Assembly (NCBI GenBank): GCA_947056845.1
Contig: CAMSCJ010000009.1
Coordinates: 554 to 64,553, forward strand
From: an uncultured Mycoplasmatota bacterium
GTDB lineage: Bacteria > Bacillota_I > Bacilli_A > RF39 > UBA660
Length of the DNA stretch: 64,000 nucleotides
Direction of reading: 5' to 3'
Shown here in pieces: positions 6,194 to 53,460 of this stretch; positions within the stretch are counted from its first letter, which is position 1; every line of letters starts with the position of its first letter. The translations under genes were made by a program, and so were the position numbers. Below the pieces are notes generated by a model. The model ran no database searches, was not told the origin of the DNA, and saw nothing but the letters and a program-made list of their open reading frames with translations.

Positions 6194-6267
6194 ATTCATA
6201 CAAAGTATATTGTTTTAATTGTAGTTTTTTAGTAAGATTAATATGTCTTATTTTTATAAGATGAAAT

Positions 6268-6341
6268 GTCCTGCTAGCTTAATTGGATAGAGCAACTCTC
6301 CAACTAAGAGGTAGATAGGGGTTCGATTCCCCTGCGGGATA
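6268..6341 (+). tRNA. tRNA gene with canonical T-arm but atypical anticodon loop (CCAACUA); isotype uncertain
   Basis: The acceptor stem GUCCUGC/GCGGGAU has two G-U pairs. D-arm is GCTT-AATTGGATA-GAGC. T-arm is AGGGG-TTCGATT-CCCCT. A T7 run follows the discriminator base. The anticodon stem CUCU/AGAG leaves a loop with C33 and U37, so the anticodon cannot be read with confidence. Confidence 0.55.
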
Positions 6342-6425
6342 TTTTTTTGTGATTTTAAAAAAATTATTTTAAATTTGTTTCTAAAAAACTTAATTTATGA
6401 TATAGTTAATTAGAGGTAGATGATA

Positions 6426-47639: not shown

Positions 47640-47764
47640 GATAAATACTCCCTTCTAATTTATTATATGAAATAATAAAAAAATGTTTTACAATTTATAC
47701 ATTTATGGTATAATTTATGGTAGAATAAATAGTGGCATAGAATAAAGGATATTGGTGATGTGTG

Positions 47765-49510
47765 ATGATAAAAAAAGTACTTTTAGCACCTTTTATGTTT
47801 ATTTATAAACTTATTACATTTATCTTGAGTAATTTTTGGTATGGTTTTTTAGTTATCTGCTATGGTATTTATTTTCTTGTATCTGGTTTTTTTAAATTAA
47901 TTACTTTTCCTATAAGAGTTTTATTTAAGAAGGCTAATCATAGTGAAAAGCAATTGTTAAAGCAAGAAAAAGAACGAACAGAAAAACTAAGTAAATTACA
48001 AAAGGTTCAAGAAAAACAACGTGAGAAGGAACGAAAATATTTACAAGAGCAAGAGCGTATTGCGGCTAGAAAACGAGAGAAAGATGAAGACAGTTTATAT
48101 TTAGCTAAAAGAGAAAAGAAAAAATTGGGTGATGTTCTTAATGATTTCATTACTTCAATTGTTTCAATTCCTAAAAATATAAAAAAGAAAAATGATGAAC
48201 AAAGACAAAAGCAATTAGAACGTAAAAATTTATCTAGACAAGTATTATTAATTGATTTTGATGGTGAAGATGCGGTTAAGAGTAGTGAAAAACAAATATA
48301 TGAGTATGTGGCTAAGGATAAAGAAGGAAAAATCATTAAAGGATATTTTGATGCTTTTTCTAAAGTTGAGGTACATTCATTTTTATTAAATGAGGGTTAT
48401 GAAGTTTATAGTATTAGGACTTCAAAATGGATTAAACTTTTACATAGTAATTATTCATCAAATCGTGTTAAAATAAAAACAAAAGATTTAATTTTCTTTT
48501 TAACCCAGTTATCAACTTATATTAAAGCTGGTATTCCTCTAGTTGATTCGCTTCAAATTTTGAGTCGTCAATATAAACAAAAAAGCTATCAGAGGATTTT
48601 TAGATCAATGATGTATGATTTGACAATGGGTGAAAATTTTAGCGTAGCTATGGAAAAACAGGGGGTAGCCTTTCCAAAATTATTGATAAATATGGTTAAG
48701 GCATCAGAAATGACCGGTGAATTGCCTGAAGCTTTGGATGATATGGAACAATATTATACTGAGGCCGAGGCTACGAGAAAACAAATGATTACAGCATTAA
48801 CTTATCCATCGATTGTGTTTGTTATTGCGATTGGTGTTATGACATTTATTATGATTTATATTGTACCAAAATTTGTTGAAATTTATGATACAATGGATTC
48901 AGCTCAAATTCCTGGCTTTACAGTAGCTGTTATGAAAATGAGTGACTTTTTACAAAATAATGTTATTTGGATAATGATTGCTATTGTTATTATAATTATT
49001 TTATTTAAATGGCTTTATGATAATGTTAAGGCGATTAGAACAATGATGCAAACATTTGCGATGAAATTGCCTGTGTTTGGAAATATTATAATTTATAATG
49101 AGGTTACAATGTTTACAAAAACTTTTGCTTCATTATTAAAACATAATGTTTTTATTACTGATAGTATGGAAATTTTAAATAAAATTACTAATAATGAAAT
49201 ATATAAAAATATGATTTTGGATACTATTAGTAATTTAGCTAAGGGTGAAAAAATTTCATTAGCATTTAATAATCAATGGGCTTTTCCAATTCCTGCTTAT
49301 GAAATGATTGTTACAGGTGAGCGAACAGGGCAATTACCTGAAATGATGTCTAAGGTTTCTTCTTATTACCAAGAGCAACATCGAAACGCTGTAACACGTG
49401 TTAAAGCTTTTATTGAGCCAGCTTTGATTATTTTCTTAACAATTGGTGTTGGGTTTATAATATTATCAATTGTTATTCCAATGTTTAATATGTATAGTGA
49501 AATTCAATAG
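47765..49510 (+). CDS. Type II secretion/type IV pilus platform protein (GspF/PilC/ComGB family) with roughly 170-aa N-terminal extension
   Basis: Two GspF repeats. The N-terminal extension has a TM segment and a Lys/Glu/Arg-rich coiled coil not typical for PilC. Confidence 0.75.
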   Translation: MIKKVLLAPFMFIYKLITFILSNFWYGFLVICYGIYFLVSGFFKLITFPIRVLFKKANHSEKQLLKQEKERTEKLSKLQKVQEKQREKERKYLQEQERIAARKREKDEDSLYLAKREKKKLGDVLNDFITSIVSIPKNIKKKNDEQRQKQLERKNLSRQVLLIDFDGEDAVKSSEKQIYEYVAKDKEGKIIKGYFDAFSKVEVHSFLLNEGYEVYSIRTSKWIKLLHSNYSSNRVKIKTKDLIFFLTQLSTYIKAGIPLVDSLQILSRQYKQKSYQRIFRSMMYDLTMGENFSVAMEKQGVAFPKLLINMVKASEMTGELPEALDDMEQYYTEAEATRKQMITALTYPSIVFVIAIGVMTFIMIYIVPKFVEIYDTMDSAQIPGFTVAVMKMSDFLQNNVIWIMIAIVIIIILFKWLYDNVKAIRTMMQTFAMKLPVFGNIIIYNEVTMFTKTFASLLKHNVFITDSMEILNKITNNEIYKNMILDTISNLAKGEKISLAFNNQWAFPIPAYEMIVTGERTGQLPEMMSKVSSYYQEQHRNAVTRVKAFIEPALIIFLTIGVGFIILSIVIPMFNMYSEIQ

Positions 49511-49513
49511 GAG

Positions 49514-50287
49514 TTGTGTATGATGGAAATTTATTATATTGTTGTATTTTTTATCTTTGGGGCGATATTAGGATCATTTTATAATGTTGTTGGATATCGT
49601 ATACCTAAGGGTGAATCAATAATTTTTCCATCCTCACATTGTACTAATTGTGGACATAAATTGAAGTCCTATGAATTAGTTCCTATTTTTTCTTTTTTAT
49701 TTCTAAGGGGCAAATGTAGTAAATGTAAACAAAGAATTTCCTGGTTTTATACGATTTTTGAAATTTTGACTGGACTATTGTTTGTACTTTGTTATTGTAT
49801 TTTTAAGGATAGTATTATTGATTTGCTTATTGCTTTAACTTTCATTTCAATGTTAATAATTATCTTTGTGAGTGATTTTCATTATTTGATTATTCCTGAT
49901 TCTGTTCTATTAATTTCATCTATTATTTTATTAGTAGAATTAATTGTTAAAAATGGTTTAAGTAATTTTTATGTTCCACTTATTAATGGTTGCTTATCAT
50001 TTATAATAATGTATGCGATTAAATTATTAGGTGATTTTATCTTTAAAAAAGAGTCAATGGGTGGCGGGGACATCAAATTATTATTTGTCATTGGTATGGT
50101 TTTAGGATTTCCACAAGCTTTATTTTCTATTTTTGTTGGATCTTTAGTTGGCTTACCAATTGCCTTCGTTATTTTATTAAAGAAGAATGATCATGTTATC
50201 CCTTTTGGACCTTTGTTAGGAGTGGGTTCAATAATTGTTATGTTAACACAGTTTAATGTAATGGATTTCTTTAATTCTATGATATAG
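49514..50287 (+). CDS. Prepilin peptidase (A24 family, PilD/ComC)
   Basis: N-terminal CxxC...CxxC zinc site, a polytopic membrane domain, and GGGDIKL. Confidence 0.85.
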   Translation: MCMMEIYYIVVFFIFGAILGSFYNVVGYRIPKGESIIFPSSHCTNCGHKLKSYELVPIFSFLFLRGKCSKCKQRISWFYTIFEILTGLLFVLCYCIFKDSIIDLLIALTFISMLIIIFVSDFHYLIIPDSVLLISSIILLVELIVKNGLSNFYVPLINGCLSFIIMYAIKLLGDFIFKKESMGGGDIKLLFVIGMVLGFPQALFSIFVGSLVGLPIAFVILLKKNDHVIPFGPLLGVGSIIVMLTQFNVMDFFNSMI

Positions 50288-50538: not shown

Positions 50539-51360
50539 TTGGTGGATAAAATGGAAAAATATCGTGAAATAGAGAAAAGTATTATAAAAAAATATCGTAA
50601 AGAAATATGGAGTAGATTTATTAAAGCAATTAAAGAGTATCAATTAATTCAAGAAAATGACAAAATTGCAGTTTGTATTAGTGGCGGTAAAGATTCCTTT
50701 TTATTGGCTAAATGTATGGAAGAATTAAAAAGGCATGGGCAATTTAAATTTGACTTAGAATTTATTGTTATGAATCCTGGTTATAATGAAGAAAACTTAA
50801 ATAAGATTTTAGAAAATGTAAAGTTGTTAAATTTAAATATTCATTTATTTGAAAGTAATATTTTTGAAGTTTCTAAAAAAAGTTTTAAAGATAATCCATG
50901 CTATTTATGTGCAAGAATGCGAAGGGGATATTTATATAGTAAAGCTAAAGAATTAGGTTGTAATAAAATAGCTTTAGGCCATCATTTTAACGATGTTATT
51001 GAAACCGTAATGCTCAATATGATTTTTAATGGACAGTTTTCTAGTATGATGCCAAAATTAAAAAGTGATAATTTTGAAGGATTAGAGCTTATTAGACCAT
51101 TATATTTTATTTTTGAAAAAGATATTATTTCATGGGCTAAATATAATAACTTGCAATTTATTGATTGTGCTTGTTCAGTTACTAAAAAGGGTATAGGAAA
51201 AAGAAAACAAATTAAGGATTTAATCGAATGCTTAAAAGAACTAAATCCTAATATTGATTTAAATATTTTTAAATCGACTTGTAATGTTAATTTGAATACA
51301 ATGATTTCTTATCATAAGGATGGGAAAGAATTTAATTTTTTAGATGATTATAATAAATAA
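50539..51360 (+). CDS. PP-loop ATPase of the TtcA family (tRNA 2-thiocytidine synthetase-like)
   Basis: SGGKDS PP-loop and a CxxC pair (CYLCARMRRG) typical of TtcA. Confidence 0.65.
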   Translation: MVDKMEKYREIEKSIIKKYRKEIWSRFIKAIKEYQLIQENDKIAVCISGGKDSFLLAKCMEELKRHGQFKFDLEFIVMNPGYNEENLNKILENVKLLNLNIHLFESNIFEVSKKSFKDNPCYLCARMRRGYLYSKAKELGCNKIALGHHFNDVIETVMLNMIFNGQFSSMMPKLKSDNFEGLELIRPLYFIFEKDIISWAKYNNLQFIDCACSVTKKGIGKRKQIKDLIECLKELNPNIDLNIFKSTCNVNLNTMISYHKDGKEFNFLDDYNK

Positions 51361-51390
51361 TTTTGACTTATTTATAAAGGGAGGTTTTTT

Positions 51391-51954
51391 ATGATAAATG
51401 GTATCTATGATTTTATTAAACAGTATGGTATATATAATTTTATTAAGCATTATGGAATATATCAAGATGATAGGTGTAAATCTTATGATTGTTGGAAGTT
51501 ATTGCCAGTTTATAAAAGGGAAAAGGGATTAGAACCAGGAAAAGATTGGGTTAGATTACTTATTTTGGTTTATGTAAATAGTAAGGATAAGTTTTATTTT
51601 GATTATTTATTTCAACATATTTCGCAAATGCCTAAAGAATTGATTGATTTATATGATAGTTCTATTTATTCAGTTCCTAAAAAGGAGGATTTAGAGGCCA
51701 TTGGCTTTATTGACTATACGCAAATAGCGCCTATAATAAAAGAGTATAATAAATATAGTAATTATGTTATATATCATAGGTATTTAGAGAAAATACGTAA
51801 TACTAATTCATCTAAGACGGATGAGATAGTAGATACTATGAACTCATTTAAACAGGTTTTGTTTGATATTGCTAATTCTAAGGAAGGTATTATTGGAACT
51901 GATTCTTTAGATAAAATATTAACTTTTGGGAAAAAGATAGGAATTAAAAAATGA
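51391..51954 (+). CDS. Hypothetical protein
   Basis: GGGAGG SD. The N-terminus has an imperfect 10-aa repeat, IYDFIKQYGIYNFIKHYGIY. Confidence 0.5.
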   Translation: MINGIYDFIKQYGIYNFIKHYGIYQDDRCKSYDCWKLLPVYKREKGLEPGKDWVRLLILVYVNSKDKFYFDYLFQHISQMPKELIDLYDSSIYSVPKKEDLEAIGFIDYTQIAPIIKEYNKYSNYVIYHRYLEKIRNTNSSKTDEIVDTMNSFKQVLFDIANSKEGIIGTDSLDKILTFGKKIGIKK

Positions 51955-52023
51955 TTTTATTTAAATGTGTAAAGTTTTAATATCTATCTGTATATTTTTT
52001 ATAATTTGTGGTATAATATAATT

Positions 52024-52203
52024 GTCTAGGAGATAGGAAGACCTATTTAAGAAAAACCTACTAATTGAAACGATTGGGAATCTAATTTATCGGTGGTGTT
52101 GAATATTTGCATTTATGCAAAGCTCCTAAAACCGATAATGTGATGCCCACCTGGGAGACTAGGTTTTGATCGTTAAGGGTCCCTTCTTCTGGACTTTTTT
52201 TTG
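52024..52203 (+). ncRNA. Candidate structured small RNA (about 180 nt), possibly 6S RNA (ssrS)-like
   Basis: An extended -10 TGGTATAAT sits at 52009-52017, and a hairpin with a T8 run ends at 52202. No ORF. Extensive 5'/3' complementarity is visible, for example UUUAUCGG with CCGAUAA, AACGAU with AUCGUU, and GGAAGACC with GGUC..CUUCU. An apical hairpin UUGCA-uuua-UGCAA is present. The element lies immediately upstream of a ThiF-family (tcdA/yrvM-like) gene. Confidence 0.4.
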
Positions 52204-52238
52204 TGTTCAAAAGATGTTATAATTAAATTGGTGAGGCT

Positions 52239-52919
52239 ATGAATCAGTTTTCTAGATTAGAGTTATTAGTAGGACAAGATAATTTAAATAAAATAAAAAA
52301 TACTACAGTTCTTATTATAGGTCTTGGTGGTGTTGGTAGTTTTGCTCTTGAATCATTAGTTAGAAATGGTATAGGGAAAGTTATTATTGTTGATAATGAT
52401 ATTGTTGATATAACTAATTTAAATAGGCAGATTATGTCTTTACAAAATAATATAGGTTTATTAAAAACAGATGTTTGGGAGAAGAGAATTTTTGAAATAA
52501 ATCCCACTTGTAAAGTTAAAAAAATTACCAAATTTATTACTAAAGAAAATATAAATGAATTATTTAGCGAAGATATTGACTATATTGTTGATGCTTGTGA
52601 TACAATAGAAGTTAAGAAGGAATTAATTAGACAGTCAAAATTTAGAAAAATTAAATTGATTTCTTCAATGGGAACTGGAAATAAAATGGATCCAGGACGC
52701 TTAAAAATTATGGATATAAGAAAAACTAGTTATGATCCTATTGCGGGTATTTTAAGGCGAATGGTTAGAGATGAGAATATAAGCGGAAAAGTTATGGTGG
52801 TATCTAGTGATGAGCCATTGCTTAAAAGTGAGACTAAAAAGTTGGGTTCTAATTGTTTGGTTCCATCAGTTGCTGGGTTATTATGTGCTAGTTTTGTCAT
52901 TAATGATATAGTGGGGTGA
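52239..52919 (+). CDS. tcdA: ThiF/MoeB-family E1-like enzyme, tRNA t6A37 cyclodehydratase TcdA (YrvM-like)
   Basis: GLGGVGS nucleotide-binding motif. Size and the absence of a rhodanese domain fit TcdA. Confidence 0.7.
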   Translation: MNQFSRLELLVGQDNLNKIKNTTVLIIGLGGVGSFALESLVRNGIGKVIIVDNDIVDITNLNRQIMSLQNNIGLLKTDVWEKRIFEINPTCKVKKITKFITKENINELFSEDIDYIVDACDTIEVKKELIRQSKFRKIKLISSMGTGNKMDPGRLKIMDIRKTSYDPIAGILRRMVRDENISGKVMVVSSDEPLLKSETKKLGSNCLVPSVAGLLCASFVINDIVG

Positions 52920-52923
52920 TTTT

Positions 52924-53460
52924 TTGAAACATGATTTATTAAAAGTTATTTCTAATTTTAAAGGCAATGTTTTTACACTAGGAATTGTTGATAAGGATTT
53001 AATATCTGCTATTCAAAATAATACACAAATCGGACATTATTTAATGTTAAATATTAATCAAACTATTGAATATGCAAAGTCTGATAAATATAAGCCTACA
53101 AAACGAATTAAAATTAAAAAGATAAAGAAAAAGAATAAAAAGAAAAAGATAGATTATACTCTATGTGAAATAAGTGATTGTAAGGCACATTTCCACACCT
53201 TTATTAATGATACTATTTACTTTAATAAAGCTAAAGTGTTTTATTATGGTGATATAAATGAATATGATGTAGATGTTTTAATTAGAAAATATCGTCGTTA
53301 TAATGTTGTAATTAATATTACAAAATATCCTAATGGGGAATTTATTTTAGAGATAGATACATCTAAAGCTAAAACAAATAGATTTAAAAGTCTTTTTTAC
53401 CGTATTATTGATTTTTTTACAATGCTTTTTGATTATTTAACTGATTTTTTATTAAGTTAG
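52924..53460 (+). CDS. Hypothetical protein with Lys-rich central segment
   Basis: ORF with a KIKKIKKKNKKKK stretch. No recognised domain. Confidence 0.45.
   Translation: MKHDLLKVISNFKGNVFTLGIVDKDLISAIQNNTQIGHYLMLNINQTIEYAKSDKYKPTKRIKIKKIKKKNKKKKIDYTLCEISDCKAHFHTFINDTIYFNKAKVFYYGDINEYDVDVLIRKYRRYNVVINITKYPNGEFILEIDTSKAKTNRFKSLFYRIIDFFTMLFDYLTDFLLS

Follow-up and report, generated by a model that had tools for sequence, protein, structure and literature searches.

A very probable 6S RNA gene of the 6S-1 type upstream of tcdA in an uncultured gut Bacilli/Mycoplasmatota bacterium

The locus upstream of tcdA

The window, which is the whole stretch of 64,000 nucleotides (64 kb) analyzed here, contains a tcdA/yrvM-like gene of the ThiF family, and the region directly upstream of this gene on the same strand is the subject of the present analysis. 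The ThiF-family ORF begins 36 nt after a run of eight T residues, and the ORFs upstream of the region encode a 187-aa protein without a Pfam match and a PP-loop ATPase. Between the promoter and the terminator, the first-pass annotation had described about 180 nt free of ORFs, and no meaningful ORF was found there: the longest one on the + strand has 20 aa (TTG start, 52107-52169), and the antisense ORFs on the - strand have 42 aa (TTG start) and 21 aa. The local G+C content is 36-38%, compared with about 25% in the genome and 20-30% otherwise in the surroundings. The features of the locus, in positions of the window, are the following.

52009-52017, + strand: extended -10 promoter element TGGTATAAT (TGnTATAAT) of the 6S gene, read directly in the sequence; TGnTAnnnT in 46/46 homologues
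52020-52203, + strand: 6S RNA gene (ssrS/bsrA type), very probable; RF00013 55.9 bits, R1 219 bits, z -4.84
52177-52202, + strand: closing stem 3′ strand (52177-52194) followed by T8 (52195-52202), intrinsic-terminator-like
52215-52223, + strand: second extended -10 element TGTTATAAT (TGnTATAAT), after the 6S terminator and outside the RNA, 6 nt before a GGTGAGG ribosome-binding site
52239-52919, + strand: tcdA/yrvM-like ThiF-family gene (Pfam ThiF, E 1e-38), the conserved downstream neighbor, outside the RNA

Elsewhere in the window, two consecutive ORFs of 582 and 257 aa occupy 47762-50287 (+). Visual inspection suggests for the first a long Lys/Glu-rich N-terminal extension ahead of a membrane domain resembling the platform protein of type II secretion systems or type IV pili, and for the second a prepilin peptidase.

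Fold and structural parts of the RNA

The RNA read from the + strand is predicted to fold with a minimum free energy (MFE) of -55.1 kcal/mol, as compared with -38.0 +/- 3.5 kcal/mol for its dinucleotide-preserving shuffles, none of which (0/200) folded as well (z -4.84). Its parts are listed below; the two alternative elements at the end of the list share nucleotides with the canonical ones.

52024-52044, + strand: closing (terminal) stem, 5′ strand, paired with 52177-52194; 17/18 pairs (helices 1-3) change on both sides in homologues
52053-52059, + strand: helix P2 (downstream helix), 5′ strand AAAACCU, paired with AGGUUUU at 52161-52167; the Rfam alignment pairs AAAACC with GGUUUU
52060-52075, + strand: central bubble, 5′ strand ACUAAUUGAAACGAUU, unpaired in the Rfam consensus
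52076-52148, + strand: internal stem with bulges (GGGAAUC...GAUGCCC) and apical hairpin (52106-52121); helices 5-8 have compensatory changes in 19/22 pairs
52149-52160, + strand: central bubble, 3′ strand
52149-52164, + strand: 3′-bubble hairpin ACCUGG-GAGA-CUAGGU, predicted in 37/37 distinct homologous segments
52168-52174, + strand: 3′ strand GAUCGUU of a collapse-helix-like pairing with AACGAUU at 52069-52075; present in the MFE structure and mutually exclusive with P2

The complementary arms quoted in the first-pass annotation are all present, among them UUUAUCGG and CCGAUAA, which correspond to 52087-52094 paired with 52131-52138, and the apical hairpin was found as well. Its several internal bubbles of about 7 x 7 nt have to be replaced by a single central bubble measuring about 16 x 12 nt and an internal loop of 8 x 9 nt. 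The pairing of AACGAU with AUCGUU, which had been counted among the arms of the duplex, is real and covaries, but it is not compatible with the canonical P2, as the pairs of the two cross. For this reason it stands outside the polymerase-binding form and would belong to the alternative, released conformer, where it would be accompanied by the conserved 3′-bubble hairpin. By analogy, its counterpart in 6S-1 is the central-bubble collapse helix.

The pairs of P2 are nearly invariant across the 45 distinct sequences described below, and P2 is therefore without covariation evidence either way; the distal 4-bp part which the Rfam consensus assigns to this helix is not formed here and is marked as non-canonical. 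The stem of the 3′-bubble hairpin, whose outer pairs take the GG otherwise paired in P2, differs among homologues (CUGG/CUAG, CUGU/GCAG, CUCGC/GCGAG, CUGUGUG/CGCGCGG).

Family assignment

The complete 64-kb window was scanned with Rfam 15 at the gathering thresholds, which returned two matches, one to tRNA and one to the 6S/SsrS family (RF00013). The latter lies at 52020-52199 and reaches 55.9 bits, only 9.5 bits above the gathering score of 46.4, with an E-value of 2.1e-8 for the scan of the whole window. The match spans the entire model (positions 1-187 of 187), is limited to the + strand, and represents the single 6S copy within the window. A permissive scan of 51850-52350 gave no riboswitch, T-box, leader, SRP, tmRNA or sRNA, the next best match having an E-value of at least 2.5. 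The first-pass annotation had recognized the long-duplex shape of a 6S RNA and had named 6S, SRP, tmRNA and riboswitch models for such a comparison; 6S alone matches, and the match agrees with the prediction in strand and, to within 4 nt, in position.

Other properties of the family are found at the locus as well. The long irregular duplex of about 180-200 nt, with the closing stem, central bubble, internal stem and apical loop, is present in the MFE and canonical structures and in the homologues, and the conserved sequence blocks around the central bubble align to the corresponding positions of the Rfam consensus. The features of the Firmicute 6S-1 subtype are a position directly before yrvM/tcdA in the same orientation, which is observed directly, and a 3′-bubble hairpin together with a collapse helix in place of the long 3′ hairpin of the E. 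coli type, which is supported by prediction and covariation (this definition of the subtype was taken from PMC8876501). The region upstream of tcdA is thus, with high confidence, the 6S RNA gene (ssrS; bsrA/6S-1 type by its neighbors) of an uncultured AT-rich gut Bacilli/Mycoplasmatota bacterium, RF39-like by name only. The grounds for the 6S-1 (bsrA) type, as read from the sequence, are synteny and the predicted release elements. This kind of RNA is already known and not new, and it would be picked up in any routine annotation with Rfam.

The lone tRNA gene of the window, at 6267-6342 (+), scores 45 bits with Rfam and is called tRNA-Ser by ARAGORN, with the anticodon ACT at position 37. It is devoid of a long variable arm, has no U at position 33 in either of the two possible 7-nt anticodon loops (CCAACUA or CAACUAA), and is directly followed by T7 on its 3′ side.

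Homologues and conservation of the structure

A TcdA protein search, restricted to one genome per species, yielded 80 loci with 40-87% TcdA identity, all of them from metagenome-assembled genomes of uncultured gut "Bacilli", "Tenericutes" or "Mycoplasmatota". One relative, Candidatus Pelethosoma, is classed under Mycoplasmatota by NCBI. A covariance model, R1, was constructed from the window and six homologues passing the Rfam threshold, with the canonical 6S structure. R1 detects one copy each in 45 of the 80 loci, with scores of 70-215 bits and without exception on the strand of tcdA, and the identical 45 loci are recovered by nhmmer. On the window itself, the model gives 219 bits for the forward strand versus 31.7 bits for the reverse strand. 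The Rfam model passes 25 of 28 R1-positive loci tested and misses three (L003, L005 and L050).

The conservation of base pairing was evaluated in a model-based alignment of 48 rows (A2), including two reverse-strand rows that count against the structure. Standard pairs are formed by 93.9% of the cells, versus 38-52% in controls with the 3′ partners shifted by 1-3 columns, changes on both sides occur in 38/47 pairs, and none of the 500 shuffles reaches any of the five measures; these pair statistics are inflated by the fitting of A2 to the model and by the relatedness of its sequences. Most of the compensatory changes fall in the closing stem, the internal stem and the apical hairpin. The comparison with related genomes for which the first-pass annotation had called thus revealed compensatory changes in 45 genomes.

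Among the 45 distinct sequences, the best conserved block is AAAACCnACUAA, which unites the 5′ strand of P2 with the first nucleotides of the 5′ bubble strand, where the pRNA template is predicted to begin. Within this bubble strand, ACUAA is conserved at 80-95% or more. The further most-conserved blocks are GGGAAUCUAAU, GAUGCCCACCUG, GGUUUU-AUCG, and the bulge motifs GGUGUUGAA and AUCCUAAA of the internal stem.

The collapse helix also covaries. The cognate duplexes have a mean energy of -4.7 kcal/mol, compared with -3.0 kcal/mol for non-cognate ones, and none of 5000 permutations is as low, in a test that ignores phylogeny. Examples of compensatory variants are UGAGU/ACUCA (L048), AUGAC/GUCAU (L067), GGUGAU/AUCACU (L073) and GUGAUA/UAUCAC (L072).

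Promoter, predicted transcript ends and terminator

The extended -10 element at 52009-52017, which the first-pass annotation had marked as the promoter, is read in the sequence and retained throughout the group: TGnTAnnnT occurs not more than 15 nt before the RNA in 46/46 copies, mostly as TGnTATAAT ending 3 nt before model position 1. The -35 region is weak (TGTATA at 51989-51994, 3/6 matches). The sequences characterize the 6S promoter in this group as an invariant extended -10 type. A promoter scan listed a different candidate, TTAATA-17-TATAAT at 51977-52005, and omitted the element at 52009-52017 because the -35 is too weak for the rule of the scan; the listed candidate was set aside in favor of 52009-52017, whose position is conserved in 46/46 homologues. 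Transcription probably starts at G52024, because this nucleotide lies 7 nt after the -10 element, occupies a column which is always a purine, and forms the first pair of the closing stem. The predicted primary transcript would run from about G52024 into the T-run and measure roughly 175-179 nt.

The 3′ end of the gene carries the lone terminator-like site in 51300-53000, located at 52175-52198 (+), where 0.3 such sites are expected from shuffles. The first-pass annotation had placed a terminator hairpin with a T8 run at 52181-52202. The eight T residues are present, but the GUCC/GGAC hairpin is in fact the 3′ strand of the closing stem and pairs with the 5′ end of the RNA. A run of at least five T residues follows the closing stem in 32/46 homologues, and therefore the closing stem together with the U-run would serve as the terminator, setting the 3′ end of the RNA. 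The -10 element in 46/46 copies and this T-run lend indirect support to the view that the RNA may be an independent, discrete transcript.

Linkage of the 6S RNA gene with tcdA

The 6S copy stands directly upstream of tcdA in 38/45 homologous loci and ends 8-120 nt before it, and at least one gene is placed between the two in the other 7/45. An example of the separated arrangement is L040 (967-1241), in which a SAM riboswitch (RF00162, 68 bits) begins 7 nt past the end of the 6S homologue; in L045 and L046, the homologue is likewise not adjacent to tcdA. In B. subtilis, 6S-1 (bsrA) is flanked by aspS and yrvM (tcdA) (PMC11077062), and the ORF downstream of the RNA described here is of the ThiF family; the linkage of 6S and yrvM given in the first-pass annotation is hence borne out.

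No 6S was found within 3 kb in 35/80 tcdA loci, and in the 32 of these that were tested Rfam at the gathering score gave none either. Therefore, the linkage is frequent and not obligatory. In the 35 loci, tcdA directly follows another gene and the upstream space is mostly below 100 nt. That the 6S RNA is merely too diverged there to be detected was considered and rejected on the negative Rfam result in the 32 loci and on the small upstream space, from which it follows that the 6S gene is elsewhere or absent in those genomes. The loci in question are L006-L011, L013-L017 and 24 more. In some of them, TcdA is nearer to that of the window (62-68% identity) than in many loci which keep the linkage, and the sequences suggest a relocation or a loss of the 6S gene in a sublineage.

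The second extended -10 element, at 52215-52223, is kept in the nearer relatives (L001-L005, L018, L020, L022, L031, L041, L044 and L055) and is likely, judging from its sequence and position, tcdA's own promoter. Given its distance of 6 nt from the ribosome-binding site, the leader of the tcdA mRNA would be only about 9 nt long. In 13/38 adjacent loci, which belong to more distant relatives, the spacer measures 25 nt or less and has a ribosome-binding site only and no promoter, so that transcription of tcdA there must either read through from the 6S gene or begin at a promoter within it.

Alternative explanations

Such close spacing invites the reading of the element as a cis-acting 5′ leader of tcdA, i.e., an attenuator or a riboswitch whose hairpin and T-run form a conditional terminator controlling read-through. 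The element has the orientation of tcdA, is separated from it by 36 nt and carries a terminator-like site at its end, the short promoter-free spacers of the 13 loci point in the same direction, and in B. subtilis, 6S-1 extended by yrvM sequence was found on sigma-A (PMC11077062). Co-transcription with a neighbor is, however, known for genuine 6S genes and is therefore no argument against 6S. A match to a cis-regulatory leader, which the first-pass annotation had named as a result that would speak against 6S, was looked for, and among the Rfam families no cis-regulatory one matches while 6S alone does. Moreover, a strict coupling of the element with tcdA is not observed: 35 tcdA loci are without it, in 7 loci other genes separate the RNA from tcdA, and in L040 the RNA is followed by a SAM riboswitch. 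Past the terminator, the window and its near relatives carry a separate conserved TGnTATAAT for tcdA. A leader of tcdA is on this evidence very improbable, and the 6S RNA gene remains the preferred reading.

The structured RNA could also be derived from 6S, or resemble it, and no longer act on RNA polymerase, either through the acquisition of another partner or as a decaying gene in a reduced genome. The score modestly above the threshold, the lost distal part of P2 and the predicted preference of the free RNA for the collapsed form are compatible with this explanation. It is opposed by the promoter, which is intact in 46/46 copies, and by the conservation and covariation in 45 genomes, at TcdA identities down to about 47-50%, of the bubble flanks, the template block and both alternative helices; this pattern is the one expected from selection on the complete 6S cycle and gives no sign of decay. 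We regard a repurposed or decayed 6S RNA as highly unlikely. Finally, the fold could have arisen by chance in AT-rich intergenic DNA, or the region could be the coding part of a 42-aa antisense ORF with a TTG start, which does exist on the - strand (52082-52210). Against chance stand the E-value of 2e-8, the z of -4.84 and the compensatory changes in the homologues, and against the opposite strand stands the R1 score, which drops to 31.7 bits there. The antisense ORF was rejected as a gene, as it is not conserved, the longest antisense ORF measuring 4-45 aa in the 45 homologues. The pattern of conservation excludes both forms of this explanation, which is left with a negligible probability.

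Comparison with known 6S RNAs

The closest known counterparts of the 6S RNA described here include B. subtilis 6S-1 (bsrA), with which it shares the Rfam family, the gene order with the co-oriented ThiF-family gene yrvM/tcdA as the next gene downstream, and a similar size of about 180-190 nt. Further likenesses concern the elements described for 6S-1 (PMC8876501): a small 3′-bubble hairpin, a collapse helix that joins the distal part of the 5′ bubble strand to the segment around the 3′ strand of P2, and an early C in the 5′ bubble strand, here a candidate G-initiating pRNA start, comparable to C40. There are also differences. The upstream neighbor is the 187-aa ORF without a Pfam match here and aspS in B. 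subtilis; P2 is cut here to 6-7 A/U-rich pairs, with the distal 4 consensus pairs missing; the 7-bp collapse helix is predicted here to be about as stable as P2, and consequently the collapsed form is the computed MFE; and the 3′ end looks here like a direct terminator, composed of the closing stem and U8.

With E. coli 6S (ssrS), the RNA has in common the family, the architecture of closing stem, P2, large central bubble and internal stem, and the proposed cycle of holoenzyme sequestration and pRNA-driven release. Both genes also have a conserved, co-oriented downstream neighbor, although the neighboring genes themselves differ; in E. coli, the neighbor is ygfA. The two RNAs diverge in the 3′ bubble strand. 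In E. coli 6S, this strand is unstructured when the RNA is free, and a 9-bp hairpin is formed only after P2 is unwound (PMC8876501), whereas here a 6-bp 3′-bubble hairpin is already predicted, and the release would also need the collapse helix, as in B. subtilis. The second RNA of B. subtilis, 6S-2 (bsrB), is similar in the Rfam family and general shape, but it is the copy not linked to yrvM. According to PMC3753640 and PMC3923129, the two B. subtilis 6S RNAs differ, and the initiating nucleotide determines the efficiency of pRNA synthesis in this species.

Proposed polymerase cycle and the two conformers

In the 6S family, a bubble resembling an open promoter binds the holoenzyme containing the housekeeping sigma factor, and on outgrowth the RNA is used as the template of a short pRNA, which unwinds P2 and refolds the RNA, and the polymerase is released (PMC8876501). 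The 3′-bubble hairpin, the collapse helix and the pRNA start at C40 have been described for B. subtilis 6S-1, and the central-bubble collapse helix for the 6S RNA of Aquifex as well (PMC8876501). By analogy with these RNAs, the following cycle may be proposed, in which polymerase binding, the pRNA start site, pRNA synthesis, the refolding and the transcript ends are all predictions.

An RNA of about 177 nt would be produced from its own extended -10 promoter, probably from G52024, and would end at T8 after the closing stem. It would adopt the long irregular duplex, whose central bubble (52060-52075 / 52149-52160) would imitate an open promoter. As the homology to 6S of E. coli and 6S-1 of B. 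subtilis suggests, the sigma-A RNA polymerase holoenzyme would bind the RNA in its active site and thereby be held back when nutrients are scarce. During outgrowth, the polymerase would use the RNA as a template, starting at the predicted C52061 and reading into P2, which would give a pRNA of the sequence 5′-GUAGGUUUUU... The choice of C52061, located in the conserved ACU just past P2, as a G-initiating start is likely by comparison with C40 of B. subtilis 6S-1 (PMC8876501). The sequence prerequisites for pRNA templating are seen at the locus, namely the conserved C in the 5′ bubble strand, the weak P2 and the covarying alternative helices. The pRNA:6S hybrid would then unwind P2, the freed 3′ strand would complete the 3′-bubble hairpin (52149-52164), and the pairing of 52069-52075 with 52168-52174 in the collapse helix would close the bubble, leading to the release of the polymerase.

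The computed energies place the two conformers close to each other. For the free RNA, the collapsed form is the MFE at -55.1 kcal/mol versus -54.1 kcal/mol for the best fold that keeps P2, and keeping the bubble strictly open costs 6.8 kcal/mol relative to the MFE. Across the group, the collapsed form is the computed MFE in 39/45 sequences, with a median gap of 1.9 kcal/mol. A free RNA locked in the collapsed form, as a new variant of the family, was considered and rejected, given that the best P2-keeping structure lies a mere 1.0 kcal/mol above the MFE, a gap smaller than the error of the energy model. Two states nearly equal in energy within this error are what is expected for a switch, and they constitute no departure from the known mechanism.

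A stronger version of this model can be formulated, although we hold it to be rather unlikely. The 6S RNA of reduced-genome gut Bacilli would, according to it, be a tuned two-state switch in which the collapsed form, with the 3′-bubble hairpin and the 7-bp collapse helix, is at least as stable as the open one; in the distant members, tcdA would be expressed only by read-through from 6S, in a true 6S-tcdA operon. If the two-state switch were true, the polymerase would have to bind the rarer of the two conformers, and its release might need no more than very short pRNAs.

Significance

The identification of the 6S RNA gene adds little beyond the correct annotation of the locus, and it opens no new question. 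It extends the 6S-tcdA(yrvM) gene order of B. subtilis to uncultured RF39-like gut Bacilli/Mycoplasmatota, in which it is found in 38/80 loci. The compensatory changes in the collapse helix provide independent comparative support for the known model, which was derived from experiments with B. subtilis 6S-1.
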